This document shows positions 15,614 to 64,000 of a stretch of DNA of 64,000 nt, one piece after another. Origin of the DNA: a virus; UHGV virus genome UHGV-0370399. The stretch is one strand, 5' to 3'. The translations under genes were made by a program, and so were the position numbers. Positions within the stretch are counted from its first letter, which is position 1, and every line of letters begins with the position of its first letter. Under the pieces are notes generated by a model that had not been told where the DNA came from, made no database searches, and saw nothing but the letters and a program-made list of their open reading frames with translations.

Positions 15614-16801
15614 ATGGCGGTAGGTGAAATTCAAATTAGTGCCTTGCCTCAAGCAGCCTTACCAATTGACCTTAGTGATATCTTCCATCTTAAGCAGGGT
15701 ATTGAGGATAAGAGATGTACTCTTGAGCAATTACTTGCTCCACACTCAAGCCTAAGAAATAACCCTCATGGTGTTACTAAAACACAAATTGGTTTAGATA
15801 ACGTTATCAATGCTCTTCAGTTAGTTGCTGCAAATAACTTATCAGACGTTACTAATGTAGCTCAGGCAAGAGCAAATCTACAGATTATGTCTTCAGAAGA
15901 GGTTAATAATCTTGTTCAACAGCATATTCAGGACAAGAGCAACCCACATAATACAACTAAGGTACAGGTAGGATTGAGTAATGTTCAGAACTGGACAACA
16001 TCTAACCTTTATAACGAAGATGCAGATAAGTATGCTACAGCAAGAGCAGTAAATAACTTGTACAAGGCTGTTCAGGCTTCCTATCCAGTAGGTACTATCC
16101 ATCTTTCCATGAACTCTGCAAACCCTTCTACATATTTAATTTGTGGAGGAACTTGGGAGTTAGTTTCAAAAGGTAGAGCATTGGTTGGTTATGACTCTGA
16201 TACAAGACCAACAGGCTCTGTATTTGGTGCTTCAACTGTCACTTTGTCAGTTAATAACATGCCACAACACTCACACTCTGTGTCTCTTAGTGGTGGTGGT
16301 CACACCCATAATGCAACGGTGTCAATTTCAGCTTTTGATTATGGAACTAAGACTACCAACTCTTTTGACTATGGAACAAAGACCACTAACACGACTGGTA
16401 ACCACAACCATGTGGGCAGTGGGTCAACAAATGCGGCTGGTGCTCACAACCATAGATTGACCTATGAAGCAGGTGGTGGTTTATCGGAAAGACCTGCAAT
16501 GGTTTGGTCTACAAGGAATGACCAATCATGGTACTCAGCAGATGCTGTCTGTGAAGTCGCTGGTTCACACACTCACTCTTTCAGTGTTACCACTAACACG
16601 ACTGGTAACCACAGCCACACGGTTGGTATTGGTGCTCACAGCCACACGGTTGGTATTGGTTCACATACACACAATGGTACTGTAACAGTTTCTTCTTCTG
16701 AGCATACGCATAGCGGGAACACTAACAGTATTGGTGGTGGACAAGCTTTTAACATTGAGCAGCCATCCTTCGTACTGTATGTATGGCAGAGAACAGCTTA
16801 A
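15614..16801 (+). CDS. tail fibre protein with His-x-His repeat tip
   Basis: C-terminal 200 aa carry eight H-x-H motifs (SHTHSFS, GNHNHVG, GAHSHTV ...) and end VLYVWQRTA, paralogous to the C-terminus of the next gene. Confidence 0.7.
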   Translation: MAVGEIQISALPQAALPIDLSDIFHLKQGIEDKRCTLEQLLAPHSSLRNNPHGVTKTQIGLDNVINALQLVAANNLSDVTNVAQARANLQIMSSEEVNNLVQQHIQDKSNPHNTTKVQVGLSNVQNWTTSNLYNEDADKYATARAVNNLYKAVQASYPVGTIHLSMNSANPSTYLICGGTWELVSKGRALVGYDSDTRPTGSVFGASTVTLSVNNMPQHSHSVSLSGGGHTHNATVSISAFDYGTKTTNSFDYGTKTTNTTGNHNHVGSGSTNAAGAHNHRLTYEAGGGLSERPAMVWSTRNDQSWYSADAVCEVAGSHTHSFSVTTNTTGNHSHTVGIGAHSHTVGIGSHTHNGTVTVSSSEHTHSGNTNSIGGGQAFNIEQPSFVLYVWQRTA

Positions 16802-16811
16802 TTTCTTTACA

Positions 16812-16831
16812 GGGGCTTGATAGCCCCTTTT
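16812..16831 (+). terminator. intrinsic terminator between the two fibre genes
   Basis: GGGGC ttgata GCCCC followed by TTTT; preceded by TTTACA as in the B-type cassette modules. Confidence 0.6.
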
Positions 16832-16847
16832 AAGAGGAAAATTTATA

Positions 16848-19235
16848 ATGGCAGATTACAAGTTGAGTGAATTAAACTCAATCAATACAATCCGTTCAGA
16901 TGACCTTCTTCATGTCAGAGTTAAAAAGAGACCTGAAATGCTGGGTGATGAAGACCGTCGAATGACCTATCAAGACTTCTTAGCATCTTTTAAACTTGAA
17001 AGGTTTGTTCAGATTGCTGGTAGCACTATGACGGGTGACTTAGGAATTGTTAAGTTACTTTATGGTGGTAAGGTAGTATTTAACCCAACAGGCTCTTCTG
17101 AGATTACTATTGGGGATGTTTTAAAGACTTTTAAAATCAACGCAAACGGCCTTAGATTAACTATTGCAGATGCTTCAAGGTCGGCAACTGTTTATCATAC
17201 TCTGAATAAGCCAAGCCCTAATGAGCTTGGGATGAGAACTAATGAAGAGAATGATGCAAGATATGCAAGGTTGGCTGTAAATAACACCTTTAGAGGCACT
17301 CAAGCTATTCTCTCTGACAATGAAGCTCTTATTGCTAAGAATATTACACAAGGGATGCCACTCTATATTCGTGGTCAAGATGCAGATGGTACTAACAGGT
17401 GGTATCTAGGTAATGATAACAAGGGTACAGACAATCTTGTTTTAAAAAACGTTAAATCTGGTGCATATGTAGCTATTTTAGCTAACCTAATCTCCGTGAA
17501 CAAATCAATCCAAATCACTGGGCAAGTTCAACCTTCTGATTGGACTAACTTAGATGCTAGGTATTTTACTCAGACAGCAGCTAATCAGAGGTTTGCACAG
17601 TTAGCTGGTAATAATACCTTTAGAGGCGTGAATACATTTAATCAAATCCTATCAATTAAGACGAATAGTGCAGCCTTAAGGTTAAAAAACACTGTAGCTA
17701 ATGGTGCACTGTACATTAAAGCCGAAGCTAATGATGGCTCTGGTAAGTGGTATGTAGGTAATGGTGATAATACACCTGCTGTATTAATCCACAACTATAC
17801 GTATGGTTCTAATCTTAGACTCGACAATGGTTATGTTGAGGTTAATAAGCAACTTAAAGTCGTTGGTCAAGTTCAACCTTCTGATTGGACTAACATTGAC
17901 TCTAGATATATTCCGGCAGGAACTTTGAGTAATCTTGCCAAGCTGAGTGATGCAAACACTTTCAGGTCTACACAGGTTATCAATCTGAATGGCTCATTGT
18001 TACAGCTAAAGAACACTACACAAGACAGAGAGCTTTACTTTGCTGGCCATAATGCTGATGGTGTTAGAAGGTGGTACATCGGTAATGGGGAACCATCCAA
18101 CCCAACAAGATTTACTATCCGCAACGACAGAACTGCAACTACGCTTTATATGCAAGACGATTTCTTGTTGGATAAAACTGTCAGAATTACTGGTCAAGTT
18201 CAACCTTCAGATTTCTCTAACTTAGATGCTAGATATTTCTTAAAAACAAAACTGTTAAACCAATCTTTAATGACAAGGACAGCTAATAGACTGGATGACC
18301 CATCATCATTCAACAAAGATTGTTCAGGGTTTGTAAGAAACAACGCTATTGAGCAGGGTCTGAAAGATTTAGCCATCCATGTAGCACATTCTGCTGGTAT
18401 TGCTCATGCCAGAGGTATTGCTTTTACATATGGGTCTAAAGGTCTTGATGTCTTCACATACGCTTATGGGTCAGATGGAGCATATGTTGGAGAGGCACAG
18501 TTGTATTCAACGGCATTTAAACCAACCCCTTCAGGTATTGGTGCATATACTAAAGCTGAAACTGACCAGAAGATTGCACAGGCAGTAAGTGACTCTACAG
18601 ACCTTAATAAAATCTATCCAGTAGGTATTGTGACATGGTTTAACAGCAATGTTGACCCTAATACAGCACTTCCTGGTCTAACTTGGACGTACCTGAACAA
18701 TGGTGTTGGTAGAACTATCAGAATTGCAGCAGCAAACGGTTCAGATGTTGCTACAACTGGTGGTTCAGATTCTGTAACGTTATCTGTTGGCAACTTACCA
18801 TCACACACCCATAGTTTCTCTGCTACCACTTCATCTTTTGATTATGGTACGAAGAACACTAATAGCACTGGTGGTCATACTCACTCTGTAAGTGGCACAA
18901 CAAGTGCTGCTGGTAAACACGCTCACCACTTAGGTCTGCTATTGGTTAATGGTGGTGATGCTCAGTACGGTTATACAACTGTTAGCAATAACAAGACGAG
19001 AACTCTTGACTGGCTTGACAGAACTGATAACAAGTTCCCTAACACTAACACAACTGGTAACCATACACACACATGGTCTGGTACTACAAGTAACACTGGT
19101 GCTCACACCCACTCTGTAGGTATTGGTGCTCACACCCATACAGTTAGGGGTAACACTGGTGGTACAGGTTCTGGTTCAGCATTTAGTGTCACTAACCAGT
19201 TCTACAAGTTGATGGCTTGGGTGAGAACTGCTTAA
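16848..19235 (+). CDS. long tail fibre protein with triplicated internal repeat and His-x-His tip
   Basis: 795 aa; three repeats of about 110 aa each ending [16 protein letters not shown]; C-terminal H-x-H motifs; ends KLMAWVRTA. Confidence 0.75.
17521..18238 (+). repeat. three direct repeats inside the long fibre gene (period about 330-345 nt)
   Basis: ggtcaagttcaaccttctgattggactaac recurs at 17521, 17865 and 18192. Confidence 0.8.
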
Positions 19236-25958: not shown

Positions 25959-26164
25959 TTTTGATGTCTCCAATACTCAATGTCAATAAGTTCTTGTGCA
26001 ATGCTTTTAAGGTTACCTTTCAAGAAAACCTTCTCAGAACCTGAAAGAGATGAATTGTCAATTAACCTGTTCATTCTCTCAAACAACTTCTGCTTACGAT
26101 TTTTGATAGTCTCCTTTGAAGCACCTTTCATCATTGCTGCATGGGTTCTTCCACGATGGCTCAT
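25955..26164 (-). CDS. hypothetical small basic protein
   Basis: ATG with SD aggaggg; 69 aa, K/R-rich. Confidence 0.35.
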   Translation of the reverse strand: MSHRGRTHAAMMKGASKETIKNRKQKLFERMNRLIDNSSLSGSEKVFLKGNLKSIAQELIDIEYWRHQK

Positions 26165-26215
26165 AATCCCTCCTATACAAGATGTAGTATAAGGTACTCT
26201 TCCCTGAGCACCTTG

Positions 26216-26740
26216 TCAACTTAGTTTTGCAAACTCTCCGTGGAGTTTAATAGCAGCTTCACAGTAAGCTTTATGGGCTTCTTCTGGTGTGTCAAACATA
26301 CCAAGATGATAGTTTTTACCTTGTAAACGTATCATTGCTCGAAACCTTTTACTTATCTTCTGTACACCTTTTGGCAACCCAGATGGGGACTTTCTTGACC
26401 GATTGCAAGAGTTTTGTGAAGCTGTACAAACCCTTAAATTCAAGTACCTATTGTCCCAACCGTCCCCATTCTTATGGTCAACCTGTAAGTTTTTATCAGG
26501 CAGGTATCCATCCACATATAGTATTGCTAGACGGTTAGCTTGGTAGCCTTTACCATCAAGCAATAACTGAACAGACTTGTGACCATCTGTGTTTATCCTA
26601 TAATTTCCTGCCTTTTTACCTCCAAAACGAGAGTTGAAGTTCTTATTGCCTCGTGATACCGGCTCTCTAAACTTCCAAGTAAAGACCCCTGTTTCGGGGT
26701 CGTAGTCCAATAGCTCCTTAAGACGAATTTCTGTAATCAT
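26216..26740 (-). CDS. HNH homing endonuclease with AP2-type DNA-binding domain
   Basis: YDPETGVFTW, HKNGDGWDNRYLNLRVCTASQN (HNH) and GKNYHLGMFDTPEEA (AP2-like); paralogue of 36343-36843; sits immediately 3' of the DNA polymerase gene. Confidence 0.8.
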   Translation of the reverse strand: MITEIRLKELLDYDPETGVFTWKFREPVSRGNKNFNSRFGGKKAGNYRINTDGHKSVQLLLDGKGYQANRLAILYVDGYLPDKNLQVDHKNGDGWDNRYLNLRVCTASQNSCNRSRKSPSGLPKGVQKISKRFRAMIRLQGKNYHLGMFDTPEEAHKAYCEAAIKLHGEFAKLS

Positions 26741-26750
26741 TTCAACACCA

Positions 26751-29450
26751 TCAATGTACTTCCAACCAGCTCTTACCAACCTTACCTGTGCCAGTTACAA
26801 GCGTCTCACTCTTCAAACCTAAATTCTTAGATGCCTGACCATACATCCAGTCAGTTATGGCTTTCACTTCTTGAGTCATACTTTCTGGACATTCCCAACT
26901 GTTTTCATCGTGGTATGCCAGCAAAAGCCTAGCACCAATTGCTGGTTTTCGTCCATTTAATTTTGTCAACCCTTCTTCACATGCTCTTCTACAAGCAAGG
27001 TTAATTGCCTCATTTTGAATCTGAGCCTCCGAACCCATGAGCAAATAATTCAATAACTTATGTGGAGATTTACACCACAACCAAGCTCCAGCAACCTTTA
27101 CAAAACCCCCTTTAGAGATTGCAGCAGTCTTACCAAACACCTCTTCAAGTGCCTTTTTAGTTGCTTTGTAGTCAGCTTCCAAGTCATCTAACAGCTTCTT
27201 AATTTTAGGCAAACGGATAAAGTAAGTCTGTTTAGTCAGCGCACCTTCCTGAGTAGTTGCAGCCTTAATCGTCTTAGCAAACTTCTCATCACCTGCACCG
27301 AACAGCAGTGCATAGATACCATTCTTAGCTTTCTTACGGCCTTTGCTAATCTCATGAAGAAGATTCTCATCCTGAGTAGCTCGACAAGTCAAGATATCCT
27401 GCTCATCATTCAAGCTAAAGTAAATACTGTTCAATGTATGTGCATCAGTCCCTGAATAGACAACGTACAGGTCATTCTCAGAGTCATAGCGAAGGTACTT
27501 ATCAATCTCTGGGTTGAGGTACTCATCAAAATGTTTGCAGTAATAGCGTCCATCTTCTTGACGAATGAACTCAATTTCTTCTTTACCTTGCGTTACCGCT
27601 TTGGTGAAGTCTTTATCACCCATAAAGTTACAAAGAAGAACTAGCTGGGCTGAGTTCATATCTACAGAGACAACGTTAGTACCTTCCTCACAAATCCATA
27701 CTGCCCTCATTGGTTCTCCATAGACAGCAGCACCAGACGGTACGTTTACAATACCATACTGTGTCATACGTCCAGTTGAAGTACCAAACACCATTGCACC
27801 AGCACTAAGGCGACCATCAGGACGAATCTGGTTAAGCCAACCTTTTTCATCATCCTTTGAGTTCTCAATAGTTCTGCGTCGGTGCATCAAAGTATAGTAC
27901 TTAGCAATCTTCTGTCCAAGCTCACCTTCAATCGTATCATAAGATGATTCAGTAAGTTTTGGTGAAGTACGGATTAAGCAAGGTTCAAGCAAATCTGTGT
28001 ATTTCTTCACAGACCAGTTATGCTCGATGTACTGTACACCTTCATGTTCAACATAACTCAAACCACACCGCTCAACCATTTCCTGCCACTTAGGATGCTT
28101 TGTAATCATCTTTTTATTGTCTTTGAAACGACAAACTTTGACAGGGCGACCATCTGAGTCTTTCTTGTAATTCCAGTCATCTGGAACCCAACCAACTGAT
28201 TTCAAGTAGTCTTTAACAACTGCTACCTGAGTCATACGAGAAACTTCAAACTCAATTGGTGTATATGGCGCATCAATCAAACCTGTGTAGCGACTTGACT
28301 CAAGTTCAAAGTGGTTAACAACGTGGCTGTTATAGTACTTCACAGTTTTGACTGTTTTTACTGGTTTCCAGTCTTTGCATTTCTTACCAATCTTTGCGTT
28401 CAACTCATTGCAAATTGCACGAGCATCCTTCATTGCTACAAAACCCTCCTTGTACTCTTCACCAGTTACAGAGTTGGTTGGTGTATAGCAATTTCTCTTT
28501 TCAATGTTAAAAATCTTTGTAGTTGGCTTACCAAATGGTTTGATTTCATAAGTCTGCATCTCACCATTACGCACCTGCTGACGATACTTCGTCTTAGGGT
28601 ACTTGGTAATTCTTTTCAGTCCATCTGCATGACCAAATGCTTCAACATACTCATTCCAAGCTTTTGCAAACTCTTCTCCAGTGACTTTACCTTTGGTCTT
28701 AATAGTTGGAGGTAGATGCGGTTCAACTTCTGAAGCAAGCTCATTAGTCAACTTGTCAAGTTCCTTTACATGGAACTCCATAAGCTCTTTATCAGCTTTC
28801 CAGCCATTGATAGCTTGTTGACTCATCCAGAAAGATGTTTCTTTAGCTCGCATGTAGGTTTCATAAGTGTCTATGCCACACTTCTTAAGCTTGAGATATT
28901 CATTATCAAGTGCCCGTTTAGTTTTGGCGTTAATACGGATATCTTCTACAACACGAGTGAAGATTTCTGCATTCCACACACCCCAATGTTCAATCTCTGG
29001 TTTACGAACACCAACACGAGCACCCCATGCAGCCAAACCATGAGCACCTTTATAGCCCTTTGGAGTTGGTCTATCCATCCACTGAACACGAGACTGGATA
29101 AGAGAATCCTGAAAGAAATTACTCCACGGTTTACACTTTGGATTATCAAAGTTCCATAAATCAGGTGCAATGTGATTGAAAACCCACCAGTCATAACCGA
29201 GACCATTATGGATGCAAAGACGTTTTGCCTTTAACGCAAACTCAATGCCTTCACGTAAGCCACCCTTAATGTACTTGGTATACTTGTGACCGAGGATAGG
29301 CTCATCTGTAAAGACCCATACAGGCGGCTCTTCATCGTCAGATTTATAGTCTGCGAAAGCCATTACGTGCACTTTAGTGAACTCAAGGAGTAAACCATCA
29401 GTTTCTGTATCACCAACTAAATGTAAGTTTTTAAAATCTACGTTTTCCAT
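26751..29450 (-). CDS. family A DNA polymerase with 3'-5' exonuclease domain
   Basis: Exo motif VGDTETDGL near the N-terminus; polymerase motifs DMNSAQL, K..YG and YHDE; start placed at the ATG with SD gagggag (ORF-track start is 10 codons upstream). Confidence 0.9.
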   Translation of the reverse strand: MENVDFKNLHLVGDTETDGLLLEFTKVHVMAFADYKSDDEEPPVWVFTDEPILGHKYTKYIKGGLREGIEFALKAKRLCIHNGLGYDWWVFNHIAPDLWNFDNPKCKPWSNFFQDSLIQSRVQWMDRPTPKGYKGAHGLAAWGARVGVRKPEIEHWGVWNAEIFTRVVEDIRINAKTKRALDNEYLKLKKCGIDTYETYMRAKETSFWMSQQAINGWKADKELMEFHVKELDKLTNELASEVEPHLPPTIKTKGKVTGEEFAKAWNEYVEAFGHADGLKRITKYPKTKYRQQVRNGEMQTYEIKPFGKPTTKIFNIEKRNCYTPTNSVTGEEYKEGFVAMKDARAICNELNAKIGKKCKDWKPVKTVKTVKYYNSHVVNHFELESSRYTGLIDAPYTPIEFEVSRMTQVAVVKDYLKSVGWVPDDWNYKKDSDGRPVKVCRFKDNKKMITKHPKWQEMVERCGLSYVEHEGVQYIEHNWSVKKYTDLLEPCLIRTSPKLTESSYDTIEGELGQKIAKYYTLMHRRRTIENSKDDEKGWLNQIRPDGRLSAGAMVFGTSTGRMTQYGIVNVPSGAAVYGEPMRAVWICEEGTNVVSVDMNSAQLVLLCNFMGDKDFTKAVTQGKEEIEFIRQEDGRYYCKHFDEYLNPEIDKYLRYDSENDLYVVYSGTDAHTLNSIYFSLNDEQDILTCRATQDENLLHEISKGRKKAKNGIYALLFGAGDEKFAKTIKAATTQEGALTKQTYFIRLPKIKKLLDDLEADYKATKKALEEVFGKTAAISKGGFVKVAGAWLWCKSPHKLLNYLLMGSEAQIQNEAINLACRRACEEGLTKLNGRKPAIGARLLLAYHDENSWECPESMTQEVKAITDWMYGQASKNLGLKSETLVTGTGKVGKSWLEVH

Positions 29451-29511
29451 TTTTACTCCCTCTAAAATCATTAACCTCATACATTACTGCAAAAAATTAT
29501 AAAAAGCAAGT

Positions 29512-29540
29512 TGACAATGCACTTGACAAGGTGTTAATCT
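29512..29540 (+). promoter_or_regulatory. sigma70-like promoter in the divergent control region
   Basis: TTGACA, 17 bp spacer, TAATCT; a second TTGACA lies 12 bp downstream. Confidence 0.4.
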
Positions 29541-29645
29541 TTGCGAAGTGGGTTTTTACTTAAAAGGTTACTTAACAGTTTAACTATACAGATACTTTAA
29601 AACTCTTAAAAGATTATTTAATAGCTTTTAAAAAGCTTTAAAGTA

Positions 29646-29664
29646 TAACGTATAGAATACGTTA
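29646..29664. promoter_or_regulatory. perfect 8-3-8 palindrome, operator-like
   Basis: TAACGTAT aga ATACGTTA centred on a TAGAAT -10-like hexamer, 45 bp upstream of the ATG at 29708. Confidence 0.5.
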
Positions 29665-29707
29665 AGATAAAAGATTAAAACTTAATAGTTACTTAAAAGA
29701 GGCTTAC

Positions 29708-30130
29708 ATGCAGAAAATGTTTGTTCACCCAGACATAGCTGACTTTGTTAGAGCTTTGCAGAAGTTGGAAGAACTTGACATTGCTGCTCAACGGGAATAT
29801 GCTCACCATCACAGGAGAATGGTTGATATACAACATGAAATAGAGTTGTCTGAAAACTATGAAGATGACTTAAAATGCTCTGTATTTGAGCATATGAAAG
29901 ATGTTGCTACAGCTAGACGTAAAGCTAAAGACACAGTTGCTTTACTAGATTCTCTTAAAAAGAGGTTGCAAAGTGGTACAGACTTGTGTAATCTAGCGTC
30001 ACTGATTAACGATGTTGAAACTTCTTGGGATAGGCACTATTATCCACGTTCTGAAAAGACACTTGACTTTTCTTCATCAGAAAACTTAAAATGTTCTAGA
30101 AAGAAACTTAACCAACTGAGAGAGAAATAA
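29708..30130 (+). CDS. hypothetical early protein
   Basis: 140 aa ATG-initiated ORF, first gene of the rightward block. Confidence 0.4.
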   Translation: MQKMFVHPDIADFVRALQKLEELDIAAQREYAHHHRRMVDIQHEIELSENYEDDLKCSVFEHMKDVATARRKAKDTVALLDSLKKRLQSGTDLCNLASLINDVETSWDRHYYPRSEKTLDFSSSENLKCSRKKLNQLREK

Positions 30131-30131
30131 T

Positions 30132-30932
30132 ATGAATATCAATGTAGAAAAGATGCTTGAAGAAAAAGGTATTAACGAAGCATTTTTAATCAATGCCGTA
30201 GAAAGCATGGCTATGATTCTTCGTGGGAACAACTACACAGAACAGTTTATGCCTGCAAGCTACAACTTGCCTGAAGACAAGTCTGATAACGGTGCTTTTG
30301 CAGAACAGGTCAACATGATGCTTTGTGACAAAAAACTTGCTTTAGCATCTATTGTTGTAGGTGTCGATGCTCTTGCAGAGTTCATTTTTTATGAGATGCA
30401 GAAAAATGACTATATTGCCATGACCTCTGAAGAAAAAGACTCACTACTGCTCTTAGATAATAATGAGCTAATTGACCTGTTAATTTCGTCAACGAGTGCT
30501 GTTATGGCTGCGCTTGAGAAGCGCATGGAAGAGAAACTTTCACGATATGAAAAACTTGATTGGGGCGTAGAAGAATTAAACCCACGAATCAAAGAGATTA
30601 TACAGCAAACTAAAGAGTCTTTGGAAGAAGCTGTTGAAAATGACTCTGTAGCTGATATAGAACCACTTCAGGTGAAAGTTACACTGATGATTCCAGCTAT
30701 CTCCACGATGATGAAAATCGTTGCACTAATCCAACTTTCACAGATGATGGGTGTGAGTATTGAGTTAATTGAGGAGATGACTGGTGGCGTTAGTATGCAA
30801 GCAATCAATGATGTTTTGGTGAACATTGGTGCTTCAATCATTGAAGAGAAACTACGCATTAACTTCGGTGATGATTTTGTGAAGCAAATCTCAGCTATGG
30901 CTGAAAAAGAGTCTGCTGAGCAACTGCACTAA
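30132..30932 (+). CDS. hypothetical acidic protein
   Basis: 266 aa, coupled to the upstream ORF, followed by a terminator. Confidence 0.4.
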   Translation: MNINVEKMLEEKGINEAFLINAVESMAMILRGNNYTEQFMPASYNLPEDKSDNGAFAEQVNMMLCDKKLALASIVVGVDALAEFIFYEMQKNDYIAMTSEEKDSLLLLDNNELIDLLISSTSAVMAALEKRMEEKLSRYEKLDWGVEELNPRIKEIIQQTKESLEEAVENDSVADIEPLQVKVTLMIPAISTMMKIVALIQLSQMMGVSIELIEEMTGGVSMQAINDVLVNIGASIIEEKLRINFGDDFVKQISAMAEKESAEQLH

Positions 30933-30950
30933 GTCTTTATAAATCTTACA

Positions 30951-30974
30951 AGCCTCCTTAGTTGGGGGCTTTTT
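30951..30974 (+). terminator. intrinsic terminator
   Basis: AGCCTCC ttagtt GGGGGCT (one G-U) followed by TTTT. Confidence 0.6.
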
Positions 30975-30993
30975 AGTAATTAAGGGAGATAAA

Positions 30994-31737
30994 ATGAGTA
31001 ATATTATCGCATTTACTGGAAAGGCACGTTCTGGAAAAGACACCTCATGTTCTATTGTGAAGAACATCTTAGAGGATGAGTATGGCTACAATGTTGCTGT
31101 AATGGCCTTTGCAGACAACCTTAAACTATCTGCATCAAAGATATTTGACTTGACTTGGAATGACCTGTACGGTGAAACTAAAGAGACTCCACAGGTTTTT
31201 GACTTATCATACTCTGAACTGATGTTTAAAGTTACGGAAGCTATGGAGTTCACCTTCAGAGATGAACGTTACCATATGGACTTCAAGCTTATGTCAGAGT
31301 TAACCGGACGATTAATCATGGAGCTTAAGAAGGTTGCTAAACCGACTCTATTGACACGTCTGGGGTTTAGTAAAAAGTATAAATTCTCATCAAGACAAAT
31401 TCAACAGATTTGGGGTACTGAAGTTGTCCGTAAAGTAATGGGCGACAAGTTCTGGTCTAAAGACCTTGAAAAAAGAATGGTTAGATTCCATGAAATGTGC
31501 TCACTTAGAAATCAATATGGTTTTGTCTTAATCAGTGATTTAAGATTTGACTCTGAAGCTGAATGGCTGAGTAGATTTGCACACCAAACTATTGAAGTAA
31601 AAAGAGACAATGTGGACAAAGTTTCATCACATGTTTCAGAAAATGGGATTTCTACAAAATATGAGCGTGACATTATTCATAATAATGGTACTCTTGCAGA
31701 CCTTGAGAACAAGCTAAGAGCCATCATTAAAGTTTAA
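30994..31737 (+). CDS. deoxynucleoside monophosphate kinase-like P-loop kinase
   Basis: N-terminal FTGKARSGKDT P-loop and overall layout recalled as similar to T4 gene 1 dNMP kinase; SD aagggag. Confidence 0.6.
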   Translation: MSNIIAFTGKARSGKDTSCSIVKNILEDEYGYNVAVMAFADNLKLSASKIFDLTWNDLYGETKETPQVFDLSYSELMFKVTEAMEFTFRDERYHMDFKLMSELTGRLIMELKKVAKPTLLTRLGFSKKYKFSSRQIQQIWGTEVVRKVMGDKFWSKDLEKRMVRFHEMCSLRNQYGFVLISDLRFDSEAEWLSRFAHQTIEVKRDNVDKVSSHVSENGISTKYERDIIHNNGTLADLENKLRAIIKV

Positions 31738-48208: not shown

Positions 48209-48479
48209 AGAAAAGTGGGAGATTTTACCATTAGTCAGTGAAGGAGGTAATGGTTGTGAAATGTACATGATACGTGGTCATGTTCCAGAGCCAATTGCAC
48301 TTGAGATGGTAAACAACTTTACAGATGGTTCTTACAAAGACTTAGGCGAACCAACTGTCAAGCAACAATGGGTTAAACCTGTACCAGACAGCACAGGTAA
48401 CTGTAGTGTACTTTATCACGTTGTAGACCCTGCAAAATGCAAATCTGCAATGGCAGTAACAAACGTAACTTTTGATTGA
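48201..48479 (+). CDS. hypothetical protein
   Basis: 92 aa ATG-initiated ORF. Confidence 0.35.
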   Translation: MAKEKWEILPLVSEGGNGCEMYMIRGHVPEPIALEMVNNFTDGSYKDLGEPTVKQQWVKPVPDSTGNCSVLYHVVDPAKCKSAMAVTNVTFD

Positions 48480-48490
48480 GAGAGAAAACT

Positions 48491-48826
48491 ATGAAAATCA
48501 AAGAGATGAACATCAACATTGTCTTAGAAGAACGTTGGGAGAACATCAAGAAGCCTGAAGATGGCCATAAGTTTCTTAACAAAATTTTAGTAGCAGCTAA
48601 AGAAGAACTAACTGGCAAGGTCGCAGCAGCAATTACAATAAAGGTCTGTGTAAAAGGTCTTCCAGATAATCACCAATTTGCACTTGACGAGTTTAAAGAA
48701 AGCTTCTACAATCCAAACAAACAGATGCTTGAAAGTAACTTTGCAGTGTCTACAAGTATCGTCCATGACAGAAGCTTTATCCTTTACAAGAATATGAGAG
48801 GTGAGTCATGCAAGCATATTGGATAG
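48491..48826 (+). CDS. hypothetical protein
   Basis: ORF-track start is TTG; ATG at 48491 has SD gagagag. Confidence 0.35.
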   Translation: MKIKEMNINIVLEERWENIKKPEDGHKFLNKILVAAKEELTGKVAAAITIKVCVKGLPDNHQFALDEFKESFYNPNKQMLESNFAVSTSIVHDRSFILYKNMRGESCKHIG

Positions 48827-52668: not shown

Positions 52669-53217
52669 ATGAAGAAATTGATTCTAGGTTTGTGCTTAAT
52701 GTTTACAGCACACTTATCTTATGCAGTTGACTGCCCAGAGCTATCAATTAGCCAAAAAGTAAACATGTTAAAAGCTTACCAGTATGGTGAGAATAACATG
52801 GGTAAAGGTTGGGGTATCACTCTAGCTGCTATAGCCTTACAAGAGTCAGAGTTAGGTCTGAAGGTAGAGAATAAAAAGACCCATGACTATGGTATCTTCC
52901 AGAATCACTTGAAGACTGTTGTAAAGCGTAACAAAATTAGTCCTAATGTGGCTAAAAAGAAACTCTTAAAAGACTTTGACTATGCTGCGAAGGAAACTCA
53001 CAAAGAGCTTGAGTTTTGGACAAAGGTGCATGGTCAGCCAAAGTCAAAGAAGACTTTACAAAAAGTTTTAGCATCATATAATGCTGGGTATTCGTACAGA
53101 ATCCCTAAAGCTAAGAAATATTCTCAAGATGTCTATAACAACATGAAAGTTATTGCTCAATGTGAATTTGCAACAAACATTTCTAAGGTAAACCATGAAA
53201 AAATTAAAAAAGTCTGA
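52669..53217 (+). CDS. signal-peptide lytic transglycosylase (SLT domain), endolysin candidate
   Basis: N-terminal MKKLILGLCLMFTAHLSYA signal; catalytic-region motifs QESE, YGIFQ and AYNAGY match the SLT family. Confidence 0.55.
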   Translation: MKKLILGLCLMFTAHLSYAVDCPELSISQKVNMLKAYQYGENNMGKGWGITLAAIALQESELGLKVENKKTHDYGIFQNHLKTVVKRNKISPNVAKKKLLKDFDYAAKETHKELEFWTKVHGQPKSKKTLQKVLASYNAGYSYRIPKAKKYSQDVYNNMKVIAQCEFATNISKVNHEKIKKV

Positions 53218-53890
53218 TGAAGTACTGTGTCATGCTTACGACTTACATCCTCATGAGTTAGGTCTTGATTCCTGTGTATGGACTCCAGAACAGTGTAGGG
53301 ATTTTGAAGACACTGCAAGAGAAGTTGTATGTTCACTCGAAGAGTTCCACACATCAGAACCAATTGTGAATGTTGTAGATAAAGAGACTGGACAAACTAT
53401 AGGTGTAAGTCGTGATAGCTTAGTCATAGTCAATAAAGACCTTGTAGAAAAAGGGAATCTCATCTTAGCAGATATTGATGGTGTTCTTACAAATTTTAAT
53501 CACGAAGATTGTTCAACGGAATTGACTGACGGTTCATTCTCGCAGTACACTAATCTTCTTGACTCTGTAAGAGCAAAACCAACGTATGTTTTCAATATCA
53601 TTGATGCAATTGCTAATCATGCTGCTGTTGGACTCTTGACAGCGAGAGGTGAATCTCAGAGAATACCTACTGAGATGTTTTTAAGGCATAACACAGAGCA
53701 TGACTACATGCTTTTTATGCGTGGTTTTGGGACTAACTCTATAAGCGCAGAAAGTTTGAAAGTGAGGATGATTCAGTCTTGCATTCTGCCTTACTTTAAT
53801 ATAGTATGTTTTATAGAAGACACAGAGAAGAATGTGCAGAAGGTGAACAGAATCCTTCCACACATTAAAACCATGTTAGTTAAACATTGA
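53195..53890 (+). CDS. HAD-superfamily phosphatase-like protein (5'(3')-deoxyribonucleotidase-like)
   Basis: DIDGVLTNF matches HAD motif I as in NT5C-type nucleotidases; LLTARGE and FIEDTEKN fit motifs II and IV. Confidence 0.45.
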   Translation: MKKLKKSDEVLCHAYDLHPHELGLDSCVWTPEQCRDFEDTAREVVCSLEEFHTSEPIVNVVDKETGQTIGVSRDSLVIVNKDLVEKGNLILADIDGVLTNFNHEDCSTELTDGSFSQYTNLLDSVRAKPTYVFNIIDAIANHAAVGLLTARGESQRIPTEMFLRHNTEHDYMLFMRGFGTNSISAESLKVRMIQSCILPYFNIVCFIEDTEKNVQKVNRILPHIKTMLVKH

Positions 53891-53900
53891 GAGAAAACTT

Positions 53901-54365
53901 ATGAACAATATCATTACGGTAGCACTGGACGATACGGTAAACAAATCTGCAATAGTTCGTAAAATGATTCAAGGTAACTTTGAAGGTAAAATTTTTCGTG
54001 CTGTTAATGTAAAAGCTGATGGCAGCATTCGTGAATATCGTGCATTATTGAATGTTAAAAAACACGTAAAAGGTGCTGGTTCAACGACTGCACACAAAGA
54101 AAACCTGATGACTATCTATGATATGGGTAAGGCTTCAGAGTTAGGTGCTGAAGGTATCGTTAAAGAAGGTGCTCCGTATCGCTCTTTCAATCTGGAAACT
54201 ACTCTTATGCTTTCCTTTACAAGTGGTTCTAAAACAATCACTTATCTCTTTACTGATGCTGCAACGGTATCTGCTATTAAGGATAGCACTGTCAAAGCTG
54301 GCGTAGTTGCTGCTGCAAAAGCTTCTTCGATGGCTGCGAATATCCTTGCTAAAGTCCTCGGTTAA
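53901..54365 (+). CDS. hypothetical protein
   Basis: 154 aa; SD gagag; followed by a strong terminator. Confidence 0.4.
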   Translation: MNNIITVALDDTVNKSAIVRKMIQGNFEGKIFRAVNVKADGSIREYRALLNVKKHVKGAGSTTAHKENLMTIYDMGKASELGAEGIVKEGAPYRSFNLETTLMLSFTSGSKTITYLFTDAATVSAIKDSTVKAGVVAAAKASSMAANILAKVLG

Positions 54366-54376
54366 GGTTAAGATAC

Positions 54377-54398
54377 AGGCTCCTTCGGGAGCCTTTTT
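54377..54398 (+). terminator. intrinsic terminator with UUCG tetraloop
   Basis: AGGCTCC ttcg GGAGCCT followed by TTTT. Confidence 0.85.
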
Positions 54399-54417
54399 CA
54401 TTTTAGGAGATTGTTAA

Positions 54418-54765
54418 ATGACATTTAAAGAGTTCTGTCAAGCTACTTTCATAATTGTTTTCTTAGTTGGTGCAGGTGTCTGGGGAGGATACTCTTACAG
54501 AGACTATCAAGTTGCTGAAACTGAGCTAAATAATGAGAAACTAATAAGTGTTGCTAAAGATGCTTATCAGGAAGGTTTAGCCACACTCAGCACCAATTAC
54601 AAAAATGATTTGAAAGATGTGCTTGCTAAGAATAAGCATACAAAAGAGGTACTAACATATGAAAAAACTAAGCCAGAGTTTTATAATGTTTGTGTTACTG
54701 ATAACTATGTCAGGGTGTTCAACGAACAAAGTGAGCAGTACATTCAAAAACTCCCAAGTAAGTGA
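54418..54765 (+). CDS. putative i-spanin (Rz-like)
   Basis: N-terminal transmembrane helix FIIVFLVGAGVWGG then helical periplasmic domain; SD aggaga; the lipoprotein gene is overlapped in its 3' end. Confidence 0.45.
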   Translation: MTFKEFCQATFIIVFLVGAGVWGGYSYRDYQVAETELNNEKLISVAKDAYQEGLATLSTNYKNDLKDVLAKNKHTKEVLTYEKTKPEFYNVCVTDNYVRVFNEQSEQYIQKLPSK

Positions 54766-54928
54766 GAGTGATAAGTACACCCAAGAAGAATCACGGTATA
54801 TCATCAAAGGCAACACAGGCAGCGATGTAGCAGCAGCCCTTGAGTTCTATCGTGACGGCTTTTACCAGTGCACAATCAAAGCTAACAACCTTATTGACAT
54901 GATTTTATTAGGGAATAAGCAGCAATGA
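54659..54928 (+). CDS. putative o-spanin (Rz1-like lipoprotein) in overlapped architecture
   Basis: MKKLSQSFIMFVLLITMSGC has a signal peptide with lipobox-like MSGC; starts in the +1 frame inside 54418-54765. Confidence 0.45.
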   Translation: MKKLSQSFIMFVLLITMSGCSTNKVSSTFKNSQVSESDKYTQEESRYIIKGNTGSDVAAALEFYRDGFYQCTIKANNLIDMILLGNKQQ

Positions 54929-55194
54929 CAGAGAATCAAGATACTTTTTACGTAGAAGGGTACTTACTGTTACCACGACCAAAAGAGACTTATATGCGAA
55001 TTGATTTCTCACCAACCATTATGGATAATGTGATGTGCCATATCTTTATGCAAGGTGTCACAGCACAGCTTAAACATGTTGGTAAAGAGTGCAAAATAAA
55101 GGTTGACACTCATCCAGAAATCAAAGAGAATCACTACACATGGTTCTTACCAGATTCTAAAGAAATCTTAGCAGTTCTTAAAACGAGGAAGTAA
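54925..55194 (+). CDS. hypothetical protein
   Basis: 89 aa, ATGA-coupled. Confidence 0.35.
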   Translation: MTENQDTFYVEGYLLLPRPKETYMRIDFSPTIMDNVMCHIFMQGVTAQLKHVGKECKIKVDTHPEIKENHYTWFLPDSKEILAVLKTRK

Positions 55195-55196
55195 CT

Positions 55197-55518
55197 ATGC
55201 AGATTAATGGAAGAGACTTTGTAGCCGTTTACTATGAGAAAGGTAAAGAAGTTGGCGTAGCATAAGTATCTTATGGCAATGGTAAGTGGCTATATGGAAC
55301 AATCGCAGTAGTAGGAACAAGAAGTGATACAAAAACCTTTAAAGATTGTGTTGACCTTCTTGAAGAATCCATCCAGAATCATTGGTGTCTGATATGGATG
55401 ACTGACAACGAAGTGATAGAACGTTTCAAAAAGGTTGATATCAACATTGACAGTATTGAGCATGTTGATTTATATGAACTAACCGAAAAGGTAAGCTATG
55501 AAAGCTCTAGAGGTAATT
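55197..55518 (+). pseudogene. ORF interrupted by an in-frame TAA at codon 23 (possible nonsense pseudogene or readthrough gene)
   Basis: ATG at 55197 with SD gaggaag; TAA at 55263-55265; the same frame then stays open for 84 codons to TGA at about 55516 with no ATG/GTG/TTG until 55398. Confidence 0.3.
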
Positions 55519-55725
55519 GATAAAGACACTGGAGAAGTTACATCAGCATGTGTTTTCGTTAGTAACGACACAGTGATACCATTTTACAATCTCGATAGTT
55601 TTAGTTTTACAGGGATAACTCCAGAAGAATACTTTGAAGACCTTACCTTTGCCAGAATTTCTATAGATACATTCTATAAATGCTTCTATGATGAAGGTAA
55701 AGAATTACGAGAAACTGAACTATAA
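55498..55725 (+). CDS. hypothetical acidic protein
   Basis: 75 aa, ATG-initiated. Confidence 0.35.
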   Translation: MKALEVIDKDTGEVTSACVFVSNDTVIPFYNLDSFSFTGITPEEYFEDLTFARISIDTFYKCFYDEGKELRETEL

Positions 55726-55737
55726 GGTGTATATGAT

Positions 55738-55938
55738 ATGGCTGACTTCTGCAAAGACTGTTCTATCGAAATGTTCGGACGTGATACAGGTGACTTAAAA
55801 GGTCTTATCACTGAAGATGACTTTAAAGCTGGTTATGCAATGCCAGTAATCTGTGAAGGTTGTGGATGTATCTGGGTAGACCACGAAGGGCAACGTGTAA
55901 AGCCTTCAGAAGATAAAGAATCTTGGGAGAGATGTTAA
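55738..55938 (+). CDS. small zinc-ribbon protein
   Basis: CKDCS ... CEGCGC Cys pairs; SD aaggtg. Confidence 0.4.
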   Translation: MADFCKDCSIEMFGRDTGDLKGLITEDDFKAGYAMPVICEGCGCIWVDHEGQRVKPSEDKESWERC

Positions 55939-56724
55939 ATGGGTATTGTAAAAATCATCAATGGCGATATCTTTGCTGCATTTGATAAAGGTAAGTTTGA
56001 CATCATTGGTCATGGTTGTAACTGCATGAACCTAATGGGTGCAGGTATCGCTGACAAGATTTCTAAACTTTACCCAAAAGCATATGAGACCGATACAGAA
56101 GTTTATCTCTATGCAGGTGGTATAGGTCATAAACCCTGTGAGAATTTACTAGGTAATTTCTCTGTAGCACGCTTAAAACAAGGTCGTATAGCTAACCTTT
56201 ACACTCAGCTTAAGACTGGTAAAGATGCCCGATACAGTGCTTTAGAGTCATCTTTGAAGCAACTTAACAGATACTGTGAAGTTAATCAGTTGAAGAAAGT
56301 TGGTTTACCTATGATTGGTGCAGGTATCGGTGGACTTGACCCTCAAGCCGTCACAGTTATCATCAATCAGGTGATGAAGAGTGTAGATGTTTATCTATAT
56401 GTCTATGAAGGAGAGATGTACCACAAGTTACTCTCAGGTTGGAAGAACTACTGTGAACCAGAATACTTTGCAGGTGTAGCAGTGTTCACAGATAACGCAG
56501 TTACCCTCTTCAGACGAAGAAAAGGTAAGATACATCAAAGTAACCCTCCGGTTGAAAAGATGTCTCTGAGTAACGCTCTAGTTACCCACCTGTCGAAGAG
56601 CAATCACAGGATTGCAGTAACATTTGGCAGTGATGCAGATACTTATATCTATGCAAGAACTGATGAGGATATCGAGACAGTTTTCTCTTCACCAGAAGTT
56701 ACCTTCTTAGACGCAAAGAACTAA
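55939..56724 (+). CDS. macro-domain (ADP-ribose binding/processing) protein
   Basis: GDIF...DIIGHGCNCMNLMGAGIA and VGLPMIGAGIGGL parallel the macro-domain VNAAN..L.GGGV and glycine-rich loops. Confidence 0.6.
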   Translation: MGIVKIINGDIFAAFDKGKFDIIGHGCNCMNLMGAGIADKISKLYPKAYETDTEVYLYAGGIGHKPCENLLGNFSVARLKQGRIANLYTQLKTGKDARYSALESSLKQLNRYCEVNQLKKVGLPMIGAGIGGLDPQAVTVIINQVMKSVDVYLYVYEGEMYHKLLSGWKNYCEPEYFAGVAVFTDNAVTLFRRRKGKIHQSNPPVEKMSLSNALVTHLSKSNHRIAVTFGSDADTYIYARTDEDIETVFSSPEVTFLDAKN

Positions 56725-56791
56725 GAAACTCTGTAGGATATTCACAATAGCCTAAGCCTTTCTTATCTGGTAAATTTTTCAGGTAAGGAGG

Positions 56792-56975
56792 GCTTTTTCA
56801 TTTCAGAATTGTGCAGGTAGAGTTCTGTAGAGAAATCTGTAGAGAGAATTTTGAACTCCAAAGAGAAAATTCATTTTCAAACTGTGCAGATAATCTCCAA
56901 AGAGCTTTTTCATTTTCAAAACGTGCAGACCACACTCAGGTCGGGCAAGAAAAATCATTTTAGGATTGTGCAGGT
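56792..56975. repeat. four iteron-like copies of a 20 nt motif
   Basis: tcattt(t)cA(g/a)AAtTGTGCAG at about 56799, 56871, 56911 and 56956; tandem tctgtagaga x2 at 56821-56848. Confidence 0.7.
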
Positions 56976-63943: not shown

Positions 63944-64000
63944 GGCTATAAAGTTACTTCAAAGTTACGTAAAAAAGGCTATAAAGTTACTTCAAAGTTA
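63944..64000. repeat. tandem 33 bp repeat truncated by the window edge
   Basis: ggctataaagttacttcaaagtta at 63944 and 63977 separated by cgtaaaaaa; CTATAAAG-like motifs also at 63764-63784 and 63834-63845. Confidence 0.7.

Follow-up and report, generated by a model that had tools for sequence, protein, structure and literature searches.

A premature ochre codon in the wV8 gp009 orthologue of a Felixounavirus contig assembled from human faecal metagenomes

When a phage reading frame halts after 22 codons and then runs on without a stop for a further 84, is it a gene damaged by mutation, a gene misread by the assembler, a gene whose stop codon is decoded, or no single gene at all? The question is posed by positions 55197-55520 of a 64,000-nucleotide stretch of UHGV virus genome UHGV-0370399, referred to here in its entirety as the window. 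The original prediction, made from the letters of this DNA, had described an ATG with a Shine-Dalgarno sequence, a TAA after 22 codons, 84 further open codons and an absence of ATG, GTG or TTG until 55398, and had left the choice between a recent nonsense mutation, a sequencing error and programmed readthrough or suppression. In this study, we follow up that choice by comparing the locus with its relatives in public collections and by weighing the explanations against each other.

The interrupted frame and its gene family

Re-reading of the sequence recovers the predicted layout in each particular. The Shine-Dalgarno motif GAGGAAG lies at 55185-55191 and the start codon at 55197-55199; 22 sense codons lead to the stop at 55263-55265, after which 55266-55517 is stop-free and is closed by a TGA at 55518-55520 (Table 1). 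The ORF list and a codon scan of the same frame both uphold the lack of a canonical start between the TAA and the ATG at 55398, an interval in which the only non-canonical candidates are ATC at 55302, ATC at 55371, CTG at 55389 and ATA at 55392. The earlier judgement that so long an open stretch is unlikely to arise by chance is borne out as well, with P = 0.0026 for 84 stop-free codons at the composition of the window (38.8% GC, p(stop) = 0.068). Of the stop-to-stop stretches counted over all six frames, only 1.6% are at least 84 codons long, and most of these are real genes. On the minus strand, the longest ORF at the interrupted gene is 57 aa, and the distribution of variable sites agrees with the plus-strand frame.

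The window belongs to a Felixounavirus, a genus of Felix O1-like myoviruses that infect Escherichia and Salmonella: a 2.4-kb segment surrounding the site matches 255 GenBank phage records with identities of up to 96.5%, nearly all of them Felixounavirus. Homology also supplies what we regard as the decisive argument for coding, as all 324 nt of the frame, from first to last, align with an intact CDS annotated in relatives. With glutamine restored at the stop, the predicted product matches PHROG 4453 over positions 1-106 of 108 (E = 3e-64), and at the nucleotide level the gene is 93-98% identical to 214 GenBank records. Each of the four annotated relatives that were read, namely Salmonella phage FGS030 (FGS030_11), Escherichia phage wV8 (RefSeq NC_012749; gp009, YP_002922790.1) and Salmonella phages Meda (Meda_123) and FSL SP-107 (SP107_00315), has one unbroken 324-nt CDS at exactly this position, with Shine-Dalgarno sequence, start and stop identical in the alignment. 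The wV8 annotation describes gp009 as 'similar to NP_944795.1 of Felix O1'. By these alignments, the interrupted frame is a single gene of 107 aa, the orthologue of wV8 gp009 and Felix O1 NP_944795 in PHROG 4453.

This family is confined to phages of the Ounavirinae. A tblastn search found a homologue in 257 GenBank phage records, 256 of which cover at least 80% of the protein, and the records are of Ounavirinae-type phages of Escherichia, Salmonella, Shigella and Citrobacter, with a few under other host names. An exhaustive HMMER profile search of 1.84 billion representative proteins yielded one full-length member, a 50%-identity representative, together with some fragments; large repetitive proteins that also matched in this search were set aside as spurious. 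The protein has only a sub-threshold PUA match in Pfam (E = 0.15), no match in NCBIfam and only a chance match among PDB sequences (E = 0.58). An AlphaFold2 model of it, built from an alignment of four sequences that are cluster representatives, reached a mean pLDDT of 47.7, which is insufficient for a fold search.

The gene sits within a unit of seven genes whose order is conserved with relatives and which is bounded by terminators on both sides. The order runs i-spanin, o-spanin, the orthologues of gp008, gp009, gp010 and gp011, and the macro-domain gene; besides the spanins, the unit thus comprises small genes of PHROGs 4391, 4453 and 13034, a 66-aa ORF and a gene for a macro-domain 'phosphatase'. 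Packing is tight around the interrupted frame. The upstream gene closes with a TAA at 55192-55194, three bases before the ATG, and the downstream gene begins 23 nt before the interrupted one ends while retaining an AAGG Shine-Dalgarno sequence of its own.

Table 1 Features of the interrupted gene and of the transcription unit around it
Feature	Position in window	Strand	Basis
Intrinsic-terminator-like hairpin ending the upstream unit; start of the seven-gene unit	54377..54394	+	Terminator annotated alike in wV8 and Meda
Upstream gene, 89 aa, PHROG 4391, wV8 gp008 orthologue	54925..55194	+	ORF list, profile match
Shine-Dalgarno sequence GAGGAAG	55185..55191	+	Read in sequence; invariant in four-sequence alignment
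Whole interrupted gene, wV8 gp009 orthologue, nonsense allele	55197..55520	+	PHROG 4453 match, synteny
Still-translated 22 codons, MQINGRDFVAVYYEKGKEVGVA	55197..55262	+	ORF list, re-read sequence
Ochre TAA; the invariant Gln23 codon is CAA, and its C is replaced by T55263	55263..55265	+	Orthologue comparison
84 codons and TGA left untranslated, free of further damage	55266..55520	+	Alignment with relatives
Downstream gene, 75 aa, PHROG 13034, wV8 gp010 orthologue	55498..55725	+	ORF list, profile match
Macro-domain gene	55939-56724	+	Precedes closing hairpin of unit
Terminator-like hairpin closing the unit	56754..56795	+	Terminator annotated at the same place in wV8

In the relatives, the intact gene bears the marks of a conserved protein. 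Among 17 distinct relatives' alleles, the variable sites fall at codon positions 1, 2 and 3 in the proportion 9/7/49 and the mean dN/dS is approximately 0.076, the pattern of a protein-coding gene under strong purifying selection.

The state of codon 23 among relatives

The window copy agrees with wV8 gp009, Felix O1 NP_944795, Meda_123 and SP107_00315 in its position within the unit, its start, Shine-Dalgarno sequence, length and stop; in these four the frame is unbroken and codon 23 reads CAA (Gln), whereas the window has TAA. The same sense codon was found in 22/22 of the first relatives fetched. Across the 47 loci carrying the site in GenBank, IMG/VR and metagenome collections, the codon is CAA in 45, CAG in one and TAA in one, the last being contig IMGVR_UViG_3300045988_004931 (hereafter contig 004931), and Gln23 is kept throughout the protein family, even where identity falls to 54%. 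The sole CAG, on ERZ1643250 NODE-152, is a case in which a synonymous change, but nothing else, is tolerated at codon 23.

Contig 004931 (81,579 bp) is also the only contig in IMG/VR that contains the TAA pattern, and it is 100% identical to window positions 53052-56911 over the 3,860 nt compared; it is therefore the contig from which the window derives. The same pattern was absent from the metagenome contig collection. In GenBank, the site was probed with 41-mers centred on it and built on the 14 observed flank haplotypes, which were searched against the phage records by megablast; any 41-mer match includes the central base, because megablast needs a 28-base exact word. The 41-mers with T hit 0 GenBank phage records and those with C hit 167. 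T55263 is, moreover, the only base private to the contig within the first 306 nt of the gene.

From this distribution, the lesion is one C-to-T transition, unique to the contig, that turned CAA (Gln23) into TAA; the orthologues carry a sense codon that is one mutational step from a stop. The recent nonsense mutation and the sequencing error of the original prediction both draw support from this unique change against an ancestral CAA. A literature search for premature stop codons in Felixounavirus returned only host LPS mutations, which are irrelevant here.

Downstream of the TAA there is no second stop, no frameshift and no decay. The lesion is probably very recent; the rest of the gene is without a private change, a second stop or a frameshift. 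Since TAA stands at codon 23, the region is a disrupted allele rather than a functional member of its family: the unbroken frame of about 107 codons that is a feature of PHROG 4453 is absent in the window copy.

Mutation, consensus error or decoding of the stop

The reading that we favour, with a probability of roughly 0.6, is that CAA mutated very recently to the ochre codon TAA and left a null allele. Its chief rival is that the phage really carries CAA and that T55263 arose as an error of the consensus, or as a rare variant among the reads that the assembler fixed; this is possible but, in our estimation, rather unlikely. The provenance of the contig lends it some weight. IMG taxon 3300045988 is described in a preprint (10.1101/2023.07.31.550844) as a co-assembly of human faecal samples, many in number; the contig is the product of metagenome co-assembly, and the same assembly has at least 12 other distinct near-complete Felixounavirus contigs of 51-94 kb. 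The T allele is a singleton, otherwise without a match in IMG/VR, GenBank and the metagenome contigs. Furthermore, a true null is a priori unlikely given the strong constraint on the gene (dN/dS ~0.08). Strong conservation and an occurrence in essentially every member of the Ounavirinae lead one to expect that a null allele of the gene is costly and rare, and this expected cost gives more relative weight to an artefact or to a defective, non-propagating genome.

The remaining broken copies of the gene in the databases also look like artefacts. Truncated copies of 62-65 aa occur in isolated public records: MG969404.1, Logan ERR1097499 and ENA ERZ28668903. The first two leave the family right after TRSDTK, beside an A5 run (window 55330-55334), with products of 64-65 aa, as would be expected of a homopolymer frameshift; in the sister records MG969405/406/414 the match is 1-2 nt short of 324, and later GEC_vB re-sequencing records are intact. 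The third copy lies at the end of a contig of 3x coverage. All three are most likely sequencing artefacts. The window shares with them the truncation of the same gene, but its lesion, unlike theirs, is a base substitution outside a homopolymer.

Against an error at 55263 stands the quality of the consensus around it. Neither stops nor frameshifts disturb the alignments of the 97 other wV8-matching genes in the window, which argues for high consensus quality: 98 of the 106 translated annotated wV8 CDSs match the window, and the gp009 orthologue alone combines a full-length alignment with an in-frame stop, the one other flagged case being gp013, a doubtful 54-aa ORF in a repeat region. The site itself is outside any homopolymer. 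In the 3,530 nt from the polynucleotide-kinase-like gene to the macro-domain gene, there are four private bases, of which 53746 C, 54781 C and 56130 T are synonymous third-position transitions, the signature of real substitutions, and the fourth is the nonsense T55263. The other private changes of the contig thus look like real evolution and not random error. At normal consensus error rates, an error substitution that also creates a stop is expected, by estimate, in well under 1% of such windows. We infer that the T is probably a genuine base of the virus population and not an error of the consensus.

A different kind of explanation accepts the TAA and has it read through or suppressed, so that the full-length 107-aa protein is still made. 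Such suppression could proceed through an ochre suppressor tRNA of the phage or the host, or through near-cognate decoding of UAA by the phage tRNA-Gln(UUG), which could restore the glutamine. The 84 undamaged downstream codons are compatible with this explanation, but an intact downstream frame is equally expected after any very recent mutation. Felixounaviruses have about 23-26 tRNA genes, among them tRNA-Gln(UUG), which is near-cognate to UAA, and the tRNA cluster of contig 004931 falls outside the window. Within the 64-kb window there are no tRNA genes and hence no suppressor tRNA, because the Felixounavirus cluster sits elsewhere in the genome (wV8 25,986-31,556). In the clusters of wV8 and 12 IMG/VR relatives, however, no anticodon tta, cta or tca is found, and the TTG anticodon of tRNA-Gln(UUG) is kept in 25/25 copies fetched. 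UAA is the least leaky stop in enterobacteria, and near-cognate reading of it by tRNA-Gln would give only trace amounts of full-length protein.

Features of a dedicated recoding site are likewise missing at codon 23. The site is not conserved as such, since every relative has a Gln codon there and none has a stop. TAA is the commonest genuine terminator of the window, closing 58/94 long ORFs, and it also ends the adjoining upstream gene. The stop is TAA then G; the 55 nt after it, taken within a folded segment of 81 nt, give no better a structure than shuffled versions (z = 0.26), and Rfam has no match anywhere in the window. Phage Q-beta offers a resemblance in its A1 protein, where an in-frame stop is also followed by a long open, coding-looking extension; the leaky UGA of Q-beta is conserved among relatives, whereas the TAA of the window is unique and its relatives have a sense codon. 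Programmed readthrough is therefore not supported by the sequence comparisons, and we consider production of the full-length protein by any of these routes highly improbable. The third option of the original prediction, programmed readthrough or suppression, is accordingly not supported: the stop is not conserved, TAA is a normal terminator here, the window and the clusters of 13 relatives have no suppressor tRNA and the RNA past the stop has no unusual structure. A reassigned stop codon was also considered and rejected, as one interrupted gene in 98 and TAA at the end of 58/94 long ORFs rule against it.

Two further readings carry scarcely any weight. The first would have the ochre codon decoded as glutamine with full-length protein at a useful level, for which contig 004931 would need either a tRNA-Gln with a UUA anticodon in its 17.5 kb beyond the window or near-cognate decoding by the abundant tRNA-Gln(UUG) of the phage itself; if true, this would be a natural phage carrying a nonsense codon along with its own suppressor. 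The second and less exotic is an adaptive knock-out, for example one allowing escape from a host defence that senses the small protein. There is, finally, a negligible chance that no single gene exists here and that the 22-codon ORF and the stretch after it are independent short ORFs, or non-coding DNA open by chance, short ORFs being frequent in the AT-rich early region of the window: the comparison with orthologues refutes it, showing in all relatives a single uninterrupted CDS of 107-108 aa with Gln at the position of the TAA, and clearly neither two short ORFs nor a non-coding downstream frame, and the third-position bias and low dN/dS, the improbability of 84 open codons and the lack of a start codon until 55398 all tell against it.

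Predicted consequences and other features of the window

If the recent ochre mutation is real, the C-to-T change at 55263 would place a UAA in the message, and ribosomes starting at ATG 55197 would release a peptide of 22 residues. This 22-mer is presumably non-functional, and with the remaining 84 codons untranslated the allele would be null. A restart at ATG 55398 is possible and would give the last 40 residues only; that codon has no good Shine-Dalgarno sequence before it. Effects on the neighbouring gene may also be envisaged, in that the downstream gene at 55498-55725 might no longer be translationally coupled, and some polarity could follow from the 235 nucleotides left untranslated. The phage, if viable, would tolerate loss of the gene, which would then be dispensable; such loss is probably tolerated because the gene is small and accessory. 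A laboratory parallel is provided by the rII ochre mutants of phage T4: in them, as in the window, a CAA (Gln) to UAA transition stops the chain early and leaves the rest of the frame intact. The rII mutants were selected in the laboratory and grown on suppressor hosts, whereas the window allele comes from a gut metagenome assembly and has no known suppressor.

What the locus presents is an ordinary knock-out of a gene from a known phage family, or else an error in base calling. For annotation, the correct description is a single gene that has been disrupted, to be listed as a wV8 gp009-family pseudogene, and not a 22-aa ORF followed by a 40-aa ORF, nor a recoding site. Should the allele be real, it would be weak natural evidence that a strongly conserved Ounavirinae-specific gene can be lost, at least temporarily, in the human gut. 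Anyone separating essential genes from accessory ones in Felix O1-like therapeutic phages would find in it a modest lead. The case also shows that a nonsense call resting on one base of a co-assembled viral contig has to be confirmed at the level of reads.

Comparison with wV8 brought out several other differences along the window. The reverse case is found at 1624-2001, where the window has a single ORF of 125 aa and RefSeq wV8 has two overlapping CDSs, gp063 and gp064, both annotated as 'tail protease'; here the interruption is in the reference wV8 and not in the window. Two tail-fibre genes at 15614-19232 have only 61-75% protein identity to wV8 gp082 and gp083, while most other genes exceed 90%, a divergence that is usual for a host-range module. 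At 48476-48491, the NAD-salvage module of wV8, approximately 2.7 kb in length (NC_012749 85129-87837) and comprising prs (ribose-phosphate pyrophosphokinase) and nadV (nicotinamide phosphoribosyltransferase), is cleanly absent, and the flanking genes are only 14 nt apart. Counterparts of wV8 gp094/gp095 and gp097/gp098 are also absent from the window. At the very end of the window, 63944-64000 holds a tandem direct repeat of about 24 nt, two copies of GGCTATAAAGTTACTTCAAAGTTA, within the repeat-rich early region in which repeats DR_1 to DR_9 are annotated in wV8, and the 60 nt just before this repeat are identical in contig 3300045988_024527 of the same assembly.
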